The notes below the pieces were generated by a model, which worked only from the letters and a program-made list of their open reading frames with translations, did no database searches and had not been told where the DNA came from. Of a stretch of 64,000 bases of DNA, positions 3,591 through 21,667 are shown one piece after another. The stretch is from sequence record OR498728.1; one strand, given 5' to 3'. A program made the translations under genes and the position numbers. How positions within the stretch are numbered: the first letter of the stretch is position 1; each line of letters starts with the position of its first letter. Origin of the DNA: Escherichia phage ZX4221.

Positions 3591-8977
<5,387 letters not shown>

Positions 8978-19544: not shown

Positions 19545-19593
19545 AATGACCTCAAAGTTATATTAAATTTTGTATTACATTGAGTATAAAAAT

Positions 19594-19632
19594 AAGCTAT
19601 AACACCTGACTTGTCAACAGACTTTATAGCTT
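19594..19632. promoter_or_regulatory. palindromic element in upstream region of minus-strand gene
   Basis: AAGCTATAA ... TTATAGCTT inverted repeat enclosing TTGACA (minus strand). Confidence 0.35.
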
Positions 19633-19661
19633 ATTTGGCAGATTTTTTATAAGGTTACTGC

Positions 19662-19727
19662 CATCCTTCCATACCAAACCTCACCTGACCTCGCCTAACC
19701 CTACCTTACCCCACCATACAGCACCTT
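19662..19727. repeat. pentamer-periodic C/A-rich array (ACCNN-like)
   Basis: ACC recurring at about 5 nt spacing; G-poor on plus strand. Confidence 0.6.
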
Positions 19728-19764
19728 ATTAAAACACCCTGTTTAAAGACCTTTTAAAAAGGTA

Positions 19765-19790
19765 AGTCTCATTTTAATGTAGCTGAGACT
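19765..19790. repeat. conserved hairpin copy 1 (AGTCTCA-loop-TGAGACT)
   Basis: 7 bp stem, loop TTTTAATGTAGC, followed by AACTACCCATAC; recurs at 19896 and 21279. Confidence 0.6.
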
Positions 19791-19801
19791 AACTACCCAT
19801 A

Positions 19802-19856
19802 CCTCACCCTACCAGACCCTACCAGACCAGACCTTACCCTACCAGACCCTACCGAA
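19802..19856. repeat. tandem pentamer array (11 x ACCNN)
   Basis: ACCCT ACCAG ACCCT ACCAG ACCAG ACCTT ACCCT ACCAG ACCCT ACCGA read directly. Confidence 0.7.
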
Positions 19857-19895
19857 CATCACTTAAAAACCCTCTTAGAAGACTCTTAAGTGATG
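19857..19895. repeat. inverted repeat ATCACTTAA...TTAAGTGAT copy 1
   Basis: 9 bp arms, about 19 nt loop; second copy at 21386-21424. Confidence 0.55.
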
Positions 19896-19923
19896 TAATC
19901 GAATTTTAATGTAGCTCCGATTA
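19896..19923. repeat. conserved hairpin copy 2 with compensatory stem (TAATCGa / TCCGATTA)
   Basis: same loop ATTTTAATGTAGC and same AACTACCCATAC tail as copy 1 but a different base-paired stem. Confidence 0.55.
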
Positions 19924-19932
19924 ACTACCCAT

Positions 19933-19981
19933 ACCTCACCTCACCCAACCATACCATGCCTTGCCAGACCGCACCTTACCT
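19933..19981. repeat. C/A-rich pentamer-periodic array
   Basis: CTCACCTCACCCAACCATACCATGCCTTGCCAGACCGCACCTTACC. Confidence 0.5.
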
Positions 19982-20011
19982 CATTAAAAGACCCTCTTAA
20001 AAGACCTTTTA

Positions 20012-20040
20012 AAAAGGAGCCTCCGAAGAGGCTACCTAGT
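20012..20040 (-). terminator. terminator-like hairpin for minus-strand gene 20045..20485
   Basis: AGCCTC-CGAA-GAGGCT; on minus strand followed by CCTTTTT. Confidence 0.5.
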
Positions 20041-20044
20041 CAAC

Positions 20045-20485
20045 TTAGAAAGGTTTTCTACGTTGCTTGTTAATGTTAGCTTTCATAGCAGCTAAATGGT
20101 TTTGCTGTTCAATCAGTCGTGAACGTTCTTGATGACTAAGCGCCATAGTGTTCACATTCTCAATTGCTTGAGTGGCTTGCTTTAAAGCTCGACCAATCTT
20201 ACCAGACATTTTGCGTTTTGCAATAGTTGCTTGATGCTTAGGTTCAACCACACGATAACCAACACCCATTGAAGCAACCAGGTAAATCTTCTCTTCTTTA
20301 AGAAGCTTTTCAATAAACTTCTCAAGTCGGTTTAGACGTGTAAGTGCATAAGCCTTCATTTCATCTTCGTACTTAACAATGTCACCTTGATAAGTTGGCT
20401 TCACAATACCTAAGAAGGTGTCCATCTCGGAATGTGATACAGTGTCGCCGTAACTAAACTTTGCTGCTAATGCTTTTGTATTCAT
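20045..20485 (-). CDS. hypothetical protein (repeat-flanked cassette gene 2)
   Basis: 146 aa, basic C-terminus; no motif recognised. Confidence 0.4.
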   Translation of the reverse strand: MNTKALAAKFSYGDTVSHSEMDTFLGIVKPTYQGDIVKYEDEMKAYALTRLNRLEKFIEKLLKEEKIYLVASMGVGYRVVEPKHQATIAKRKMSGKIGRALKQATQAIENVNTMALSHQERSRLIEQQNHLAAMKANINKQRRKPF

Positions 20486-20487
20486 AA

Positions 20488-21093
<606 letters not shown>

Positions 21094-21176
21094 TTAGTTG
21101 ATTGTTAAGTTGTTTGTAAAGAACCCTCAACAGAAGACTCTTTAGAAACTTGGTAGATTTTTAACGTGGCTACTAC

Positions 21177-21238
21177 CATCCACCCACACCGTGCCACACC
21201 ACACCACACCATACCCAACTCCACCTAATCCTACCACA
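21177..21238. repeat. C/A-rich pentamer-periodic array
   Basis: CCATCCACCCACACCGTGCCACACCACACCACACCATACCC... Confidence 0.6.
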
Positions 21239-21278
21239 CCTTATTAAAAGACCCTCTTAAAGACCTTTTAAAAAGATA

Positions 21279-21304
21279 AGTCTCATTTTAATGTAGCTGA
21301 GACT
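21279..21304. repeat. conserved hairpin copy 3 (AGTCTCA-loop-TGAGACT)
   Basis: identical to copy 1, with the same upstream AAGACCTTTTAAAAAG and downstream AACTACCCATAC. Confidence 0.6.
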
Positions 21305-21316
21305 AACTACCCATAC

Positions 21317-21385
21317 CGAACCTCACCGCACCATACTACACCTGACACCACCTTACACCACCGCACCATACCTGACCGAGCTACA
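21317..21385. repeat. C/A-rich pentamer-periodic array
   Basis: CTCACCGCACCATACTACACCTGACACCACCTTACACCACCGCACCATACC. Confidence 0.55.
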
Positions 21386-21424
21386 CATCACTTAAAAACC
21401 CTTTTCAAAGACTCTTAAGTGATG
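21386..21424. repeat. inverted repeat ATCACTTAA...TTAAGTGATG copy 2
   Basis: matches 19857-19895. Confidence 0.55.
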
Positions 21425-21478
21425 CTGGTGAGTACCCGTTGGTTTATGCTGCTCAGTATACTCACCAAATTTTCTATG

Positions 21479-21667
21479 TCAACAAATTTCTAATAAAGTT
21501 TTATGAAGATTTTGCTTAACAACCCGCCTCACATGCCTGTGCTCTTTCTTAATAAAGAGTGACCTCTTCTTGATAGAGCGCCTATTCTTGTAAGTGTTGC
21601 TAGGGTACTTATCATGAACCGGACAACAACTACCCGTATTTGTAAACTTGATAATCTCTCTTTTCAC
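21479..21667 (-). CDS. small basic protein (doubtful ORF)
   Basis: 62 aa, Lys/Arg-rich; weak support. Confidence 0.2.
   Translation of the reverse strand: MKREIIKFTNTGSCCPVHDKYPSNTYKNRRSIKKRSLFIKKEHRHVRRVVKQNLHKTLLEIC

Follow-up and report, generated by a model that had tools for sequence, protein, structure and literature searches.

Results

Five pentamer arrays flank a two-gene block in phage ZX4221

Escherichia phage ZX4221 is a Felixounavirus, a Felix O1-like myovirus with 99% identity to vB_EcoM_ESCO45 and ~91% identity to wV8. In the window, i.e., the whole 64-kb stretch of its DNA that was analyzed, we identified five arrays of ACCNN pentamers on the plus strand (GGYNN on the minus strand), each with 10–13 clean units and at most 16. 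The arrays were confined to two intergenic gaps (array-bearing sequence 19545–20044 and 21091–21478) flanking a two-gene block at 20045–21075, and the exact repeat tracts were located at 19671–19725, 19799–19853, 19931–19980, 21186–21240 and 21313–21377. A preliminary description of this DNA had reported a strict 5-nt periodicity, and a phase-locked count confirmed that it is real. When ACC was counted at a fixed 5-nt phase in a 10-unit span across the 64 kb, at least 5 of 10 positions were in phase at only five places on the plus strand (~19653–19747, 19776–19880, 19908–19997, 21168–21257 and 21295–21399), with peaks of 7–10 of 10. The remainder of the 64 kb almost never exceeded 3 of 10, and the same count for plus-strand GGT reached a maximum of 4 of 10. 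The run of ACCNN units quoted in that description was present and starts at 19806 instead of 19802, a trivial offset. Its statement that the arrays are non-coding was also correct, as no ORF of 60 or more residues spans them; the ORF map placed the genes around them on the minus strand, as claimed, and the relevant molecule is indeed the minus-strand RNA, which carries GG every 5 nt. No Rfam 15 match at gathering score and no tRNA were found within the 64-kb window. Public records label the array region merely as 'repeat_region' or 'DR_4', and the Felix O1 genome paper gives other direct repeats and leaves these arrays unmentioned.

The two-gene block encodes Vipr and Vap1

The ORF at 20488–21090 (200 aa) matched PDB entry 36pp, 'SUSP1 Vipr protein', with an E-value of 7e-128, and the ZX4221 protein was 98% identical to SUSP1 Vipr over 195 aa; its identity to Vipr of wV8 is 100%. 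The alignment with 36pp began at residue 6 of the ORF, whose mechanically assigned start is a GTG five codons upstream of the ATG at 21075; the solved SUSP1 protein and all annotated homologs begin at the equivalent of this ATG. Therefore, the true start of vipr is probably ATG 21075, giving a gene at 20488..21075 on the minus strand that encodes a RAMP-like protein of 195 aa. Thirteen of the 14 published contact residues were present in ZX4221 Vipr, with GGY/DNA contacts at H17, K33, R39, E71, M72, K82, G87, K88, R138, C173, D177, W178 and R179. Position 175 is V in SUSP1 and ZX4221 alike, whereas the structural preprint names T175. Directly downstream of vipr is the accessory gene vap1 (20045..20485, minus strand, 146 aa), whose product was 99% identical to that of the neighbor of vipr in SUSP1. 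Pfam contained no family for either protein; in PHROGs, Vipr belongs to phrog_4652 and Vap1 to phrog_5926, both of 'unknown function'. A vipr gene of the SUSP1-clade kind was found in 117 Ounavirinae records.

VIPR (Viral Interference Programmable Repeat) is the subject of two bioRxiv preprints (10.64898/2026.04.26.720920, 10.64898/2026.04.26.720927). As described there, Vipr is a RAMP-like protein of ~20 kDa that polymerizes on vrRNAs, each of which consists of 9–16 GGY/NN pentamers and, at its 3' end, an invariant tail that folds as a pseudoknot in the SUSP1 clade. This clade was defined by >90% Vipr identity and comprises 13 loci. In the SUSP1 complexes, Vipr flips out every GGY and holds its guanines individually; small RNAs of ~100 nt co-purify with Vipr, and targeted transcription is silenced. 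A rule of one skipped base per unit was shown in vitro and in vivo for SUSP1. Guides of the SUSP1 clade are mostly aimed at an E. coli satellite phage, and satellite-borne guides matching other satellites were also reported. The authors propose that CRISPR effectors descend from VIPR and that the system could be used as a compact programmable silencer (10.64898/2026.04.26.720920, 10.64898/2026.04.26.720927). The protein-binding array suggested in the preliminary description thus proved to be the right idea, in that Vipr is encoded beside the arrays and binds with one protomer per GGY according to the preprint 10.64898/2026.04.26.720927. What was missed there is that the information resides in the two variable bases of each unit, which make up a gapped guide.

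Anatomy of the five vrRNA genes

Alignment of the five copies revealed a minus-strand module of ~130–140 nt, composed of a 39–42 nt hairpin, the GGYNN tract and a conserved 3' segment that reads GGGTAGTTAGTCTCAGCTACATTAAAATGAGAC or a variant of it. Two vrRNAs are located upstream and three downstream of vipr-vap1, all on the minus strand. Upstream, up1 (21276..21377) has 13 units at 21313–21377 and a pseudoknot tail at 21276–21312, with 3 further degenerate units reaching 21392, and up2 (21152..21240) has 11 units at 21186–21240 and a tail at 21152–21185. Downstream, dn1 (19897..19980) contains 10 units (19931–19980) with a tail at 19897–19930, dn2 (19762..19853) 11 units (19799–19853) with a tail at 19762–19798, and dn3 (19637..19725) 11 units (19671–19725) with a tail at 19637–19670. 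From these coordinates, the ZX4221 vrRNAs including tails are 84–102 nt long. A sigma-70-type promoter, TTGACA-16-TATACT, matches the consensus at 11 of 12 positions (21455..21482, minus strand) and is identical in wV8, dune, Mijalis, SUSP1, ASO1A and Bas63; judged from its sequence, it would drive the upstream vrRNAs and vipr-vap1.

The hairpin 5' of up1 (21386..21424, minus strand) is 39 nt long and is predicted to form ~18 bp, including four G.U pairs. The same element was present between consecutive vrRNAs at 21239–21279, 19979–20019, 19857–19895 and 19724–19765 on the minus strand, in two lower-stem sequence variants that both pair. It is conserved in its length of 39–42 nt and in an apical motif, GTCTT(N3-4)AAGAGGGT, and a related shorter hairpin was observed at 21118–21143. 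The available text of the VIPR preprints contains no description of this hairpin, and the ASO1A record annotates one copy as a terminator. The inter-vrRNA hairpins may be processing or termination signals. A separate terminator-like hairpin, AGCCTCTTCGGAGGCT, follows vap1 at 20018..20033 (minus strand). Because it precedes the downstream vrRNAs and no good promoter was found for these three genes, we infer that they are made by read-through or processing; that they are transcribed would follow by analogy with SUSP1.

Downstream of dn3, a composite hairpin/terminator (19583..19636, minus strand) encloses the promoter of the next gene, a 127-aa ORF. It reads AAATAAGCTATAA...TTATAGCTTATTT followed by a T run, with the -35 box TTGACA of that promoter lying inside, and looks like a combined terminator and promoter.

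The inter-vrRNA hairpins also bear on the strand from which the arrays act. As they need four G.U pairs, they are formed in the minus-strand RNA only. The preliminary description had considered that the plus strand, which is C-rich and G-poor for 50–65 nt at the arrays, could be a Rho-utilization site that stops antisense transcription. We regard this as highly improbable: there was no evidence of plus-strand transcription, with no convincing plus-strand promoter directed into the arrays, the flanking hairpins fold on the other strand, and a Rho site leaves the strict 5-nt period, the tails and the link to Vipr unexplained.

Variation of repeats and tails in related phages

The search of related genomes proposed in the preliminary description showed that the periodicity is kept in Felixounavirus, Mooglevirus and Suspvirus, in place and register and not in sequence. 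Arrays in the same place and register were found in wV8, dune, Mijalis (Mooglevirus), SUSP1 (Suspvirus), ASO1A and Bas63. In these six relatives GGY was kept, while the NN dinucleotides and the number of units (~7–16) varied freely, and degenerate units (xGT, GGC) stayed in 5-nt phase. Since GGY and register are kept and NN is free, the constraint is on GGY and the period rather than on the sequence. The tails were compared in a set of 15 distinct sequences from ZX4221, its relatives and satellites. A two-helix pseudoknot was paired in 86.7% of cells, compared with no more than 45% in slid-partner controls, and compensatory changes were present in 9 of its 11 pairs.

The same comparison speaks against a replication origin, or a protein that binds phased 5-bp repeats in double-stranded DNA, both of which had been raised for this locus. 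In favor of an origin, the arrays are AT-flanked repeats downstream of a strong promoter, in an early-gene region near ligase and DHFR. However, GC skew changes with gene orientation and shows no switch at the arrays, the repeat sequence differs between close relatives, unlike that of iterons, and both the copy number and the entire cassette vary among relatives, leaving this explanation with very little probability.

Two of the relatives keep arrays apart from the genes. No vipr or vap1 was detected in the whole genome of Bas63 (MZ501086.1; best tblastn E = 3.5), and neither gene was found within the locus around the arrays in ASO1A. In both phages the conserved promoter is still present, and one or two vrRNA-like arrays, their tails intact, lie between the ligase gene and the 127-aa gene. 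Such orphan arrays may be relics of a deletion that occurred between the flanking modules, serve in trans, or act as decoys.

One of the orphan arrays, in Bas63 (locus positions 2314–2418), includes (GGTTAGGTAT)x5, a 10-nt periodicity that resembles the product of recent slippage and suggests that array length can change by replication slippage.

Linkage of heterogeneous arrays to Vipr in IMG/VR

A scan of IMG/VR for (GGTNN)6GGT matched at least 120 contigs. About half of the matches listed were plain microsatellites, and the true microsatellites among them had one or two spacer types. Many others were arrays of 10–20 units in which the spacers were heterogeneous, and these arrays were often clustered in tandem. 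The gene adjoining the array cluster in two unrelated contigs belonged to phrog_4652, the family of ZX4221 Vipr. Using a Vipr-family profile built from 120 homologs, we found a Vipr-family ORF at 33 of 52 heterogeneous (GGTNN)7 loci, compared with 2 of 55 simple-microsatellite loci, among the IMG/VR matches listed.

This difference bears on whether the arrays could be no more than neutral pentanucleotide microsatellites, or repeats prone to recombination on either side of a mobile two-gene cassette. Unit number is variable, (GGTTAGGTAT)x5 in Bas63 resembles slippage, and some relatives lack vipr-vap1 as if it had been deleted between flanking repeats. Nevertheless, a neutral origin is scarcely credible given that simple repeats are rarely linked to Vipr, that GGY is kept while NN is free, and that satellite genes are matched by the NN strings far better than by shuffled controls (see below).

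Three IMG/VR contigs (L016 4602–5047, L026 2302–3404 and L104 3228–4333) each contained 7–11 back-to-back GGTNN arrays. They are derived from unrelated phages, and their arrays are ~53–68 nt apart and lie beside distant Vipr homologs. The arrays have constant endings of their own, GGTAA GGC or GGTAA GGTAA GGAAT GGT. The L016 cluster is located between terminase/portal morphogenesis genes, and the L026 cluster follows the Erf and RusA recombination genes.

Four of the five decoded guides match an E. coli satellite

The five guides, read as the NN dinucleotides of successive units, are CA AT GC GG AA GG CA GT AT GC GA TC AT (up1), GT AG TA GG TG AT GT GT GT AC GT (up2), AA GC CT AA AT AT TG GA GA AT (dn1), AG CT AG AA CT CT AG CT AG GA AT (dn2) and GC AT GG AA AG TA GA CA GA TT AT (dn3). 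Decoding followed the published rule: one base of the target is skipped per unit, so that a target reads NNxNNx. Satellites were identified by blastn with the phage baseplate gene (5821–6618) against 5426 complete E. coli genomes, 474 of which contained a related 'phage baseplate protein' with no more than 95% DNA identity to the phage's own. The satellite is a ~10 kb island with tape-measure, baseplate and serine recombinase genes, often also with an HNH endonuclease or Dam methylase, and is integrated at three or more chromosomal sites (yciI-tonB, a DUF72 gene and ymdF-wrbA). One variant, L129, encodes proteins that are named in the preprint, the tape measure WP_096972664.1 and the baseplate protein WP_096972663.1.

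The five guides were scanned against 11 satellite variants of the 474 carrier genomes (0.5 Mb, both strands), with 400 shuffles of guide unit order as the null. The best target of up1 was in the satellite tape-measure coding sequence (23 of 26 bases, 11 consecutive units being perfect) and that of dn3 in a coding sequence for a hypothetical protein (20 of 22); up2 also matched at 20 of 22, and for none of these three guides did any of the 400 shuffles do as well. The best target of dn1 was intergenic in the satellite (18 of 20; 1 of 400 shuffles). The best match of dn2 was weak (18 of 22; 7 of 400 shuffles), and no convincing target was found for this guide among the 11 satellites. Thus, four of the five guides matched the satellite at 88–91%, and the best matches of the guides were all inside it. 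Predicted targets lie at L133 8599–8630, L134 2676–2707, L137 4952–4980 and L129 7292–7323. The targets of up1 and dn3, the two located in coding sequence, have their skipped bases at codon position 3. Only background was obtained in the 11 satellites with reversed guides or when 0, 2 or 3 bases were skipped. No guide matched the ZX4221 window at 80% or more, the best self matches being 62–77%.

These sequence-specific matches also weigh against two-tetrad G-quadruplexes, which the preliminary description had suggested for the minus-strand RNA and which, in that RNA or in non-template DNA, could be structural regulators acting through R-loops, pausing or translation control. With GG every 5 nt and 3-nt loops, the arrays formally resemble the thrombin aptamer. 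However, the third base of the triplet is conserved as Y, which is needless for a G-quadruplex, unrelated phages show a genetic link between the arrays and Vipr, and the guanines are individually held by protein in the solved complexes. Together with the satellite matches of the NN dinucleotides, this makes G-quadruplexes a most improbable basis for the arrays.

The best match of up2 was located at L134 2676–2707, which is the 3' end and constant tail of a vrRNA gene of the satellite itself. The equivalent tail of the phage (21163–21194) matched up2 at 17 of 22, just under the 80% criterion. As up2 resembles the phage's own tail DNA, part of its satellite match may reflect shared tail ancestry. 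Such vrRNA-like genes, one each, were present in 5 of the 11 satellites (L129 3948–4002, L130 3050–3119, L133 2185–2259, L134 2689–2763 and L136 2783–2847, all on the minus strand of the locus) and had the tail variant GGGTGGATTGTCGTAGCCACGTTAAAAATCGAC. No vipr or vap1 was detected in the satellites. Their guides gave only background against the phage window. As a positive control, the guide shared by L130 and L134 matched another satellite variant at 22 of 22 under the one-skip rule.

Discussion

We consider it very likely that the ZX4221 locus is a type II VIPR system of the SUSP1 clade and that its five arrays are vrRNA genes. This assignment follows from the identity of Vipr and Vap1, the repeat-tail anatomy with a covarying tail pseudoknot, the hypervariable NN dinucleotides between conserved GGY triplets, and the gapped one-skip matches to the satellite. 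Small-RNA expression, the RNP filament, the R-loop triplex and silencing are carried over by analogy from the 98%-identical SUSP1 system, as described in the preprints. By this analogy, transcription of the minus strand would yield five vrRNAs, the two upstream ones behind the sigma-70 promoter, and each would consist of a run of GGY-NN pentamers with a 3' pseudoknot cap. Vipr protomers, one per pentamer, would assemble on it into a helical filament, flipping out and holding GGY and presenting the NN dinucleotides, which would pair with double-stranded DNA that reads NNxNNx, one base being skipped per unit. The target-bound filament would then block transcription of its target. The guides appear to be aimed at the ~10 kb chromosomal satellite of E. 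coli, whose tape-measure and baseplate genes are related to those of the phage, so that the locus would be a weapon of the phage against its own parasite.

Several known systems share single features with these arrays. TRAP on the Bacillus trp leader is an oligomer that reads a triplet with 2-nt spacers at a 5-nt period, over ~11 units of single-stranded RNA. VIPR is unlike TRAP in that its triplet is GGY and not GAG/UAG, its protein is unrelated and forms a helical filament instead of a ring, its spacers are informative and pair with DNA, and its function is not attenuation. ToxI repeats of type III toxin-antitoxin systems and T4-type PeSL cassettes are tandem non-coding modules with variable copy number, and PeSL-like promoter and stem-loop modules flank variable genes. 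The locus of ZX4221 differs from both in lacking a toxin endoribonuclease, in having 5-nt units within ~130-nt modules, and in its guide RNA function.

Some of these systems had been among our candidates. A TRAP-like ring protein, an idea derived from the 5-nt period and ~11 units, was dropped upon identification of Vipr, and so were an R-loop/G-quadruplex origin (unsupported by GC skew), antitermination through a boxA-like motif in the hairpin between vrRNAs, repeated sites for recognition by primase, GT-rich hotspots of recombination or cassettes that shuffle in the manner of PeSL, and mimics of type III antitoxin RNA. A TRAP-regulated leader was rejected on the basis of its GAG/UAG triplet, and CRISPR-Cas because the repeat unit is 5 nt and not ~25–40 nt and the locus contains only vipr and vap1, with no Pfam Cas domains in the neighboring genes.

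The closest system is VIPR of SUSP1. It shares with ZX4221 the promoter, the GGY/NN code, a tail that folds into a pseudoknot, the placement of vrRNAs on either side of vipr-vap1, and the class of target, an E. coli satellite. The two phages belong to different genera, SUSP1 being a Suspvirus and ZX4221 a Felixounavirus. As described for SUSP1 in the preprint, its locus has one upstream and three downstream vrRNAs, compared with two and three in ZX4221, and the five guide sequences of ZX4221 are its own, unlike those of SUSP1. More distantly, according to the preprints, VIPR resembles the crRNA-Cas7 filaments of class 1 CRISPR, in which a RAMP-fold protein also polymerizes on a guide RNA, its thumb periodically flips bases out, and a constant, structured handle caps the guide. 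Unlike class 1 CRISPR, VIPR has a non-contiguous guide, with protein holding 3 of every 5 RNA bases and one target base in 3 being skipped; it has no repeat-spacer array, Cas1/Cas2 or PAM, and it silences rather than cleaves.

The vrRNA-like genes of the satellites raise the question of whose protein they use. Satellites that have a vrRNA with a phage-like tail and no vipr or vap1 would need Vipr of the helper phage for their RNA, and the best match of up2 on a satellite vrRNA gene suggests that the phage may silence the guide with which the satellite hijacks this protein. It is conceivable, though we hold it to be doubtful, that phage and satellite fight guide against guide over a shared Vipr protein. 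The orphan vrRNA-like genes of Bas63 and ASO1A might likewise act in trans or as decoys, beyond being relics.

The ZX4221 locus is a near-identical member of the SUSP1 clade of VIPR, an instance that was already known and nothing new in kind. VIPR itself is a newly described way in which RNA recognizes DNA, with an RNA of pentamer repeats that stores a gapped code and a small RAMP-like reader, and our analysis shows that its 5-nt periodicity allows it to be recognized in raw sequence. When applied to the five guides of ZX4221, an independent set, the published one-skip rule gave correct predictions of satellite targets, dn2 being weak, and the resulting guide-target pairs are concrete material for testing the conflict between Felix O1-like phages and their satellite.
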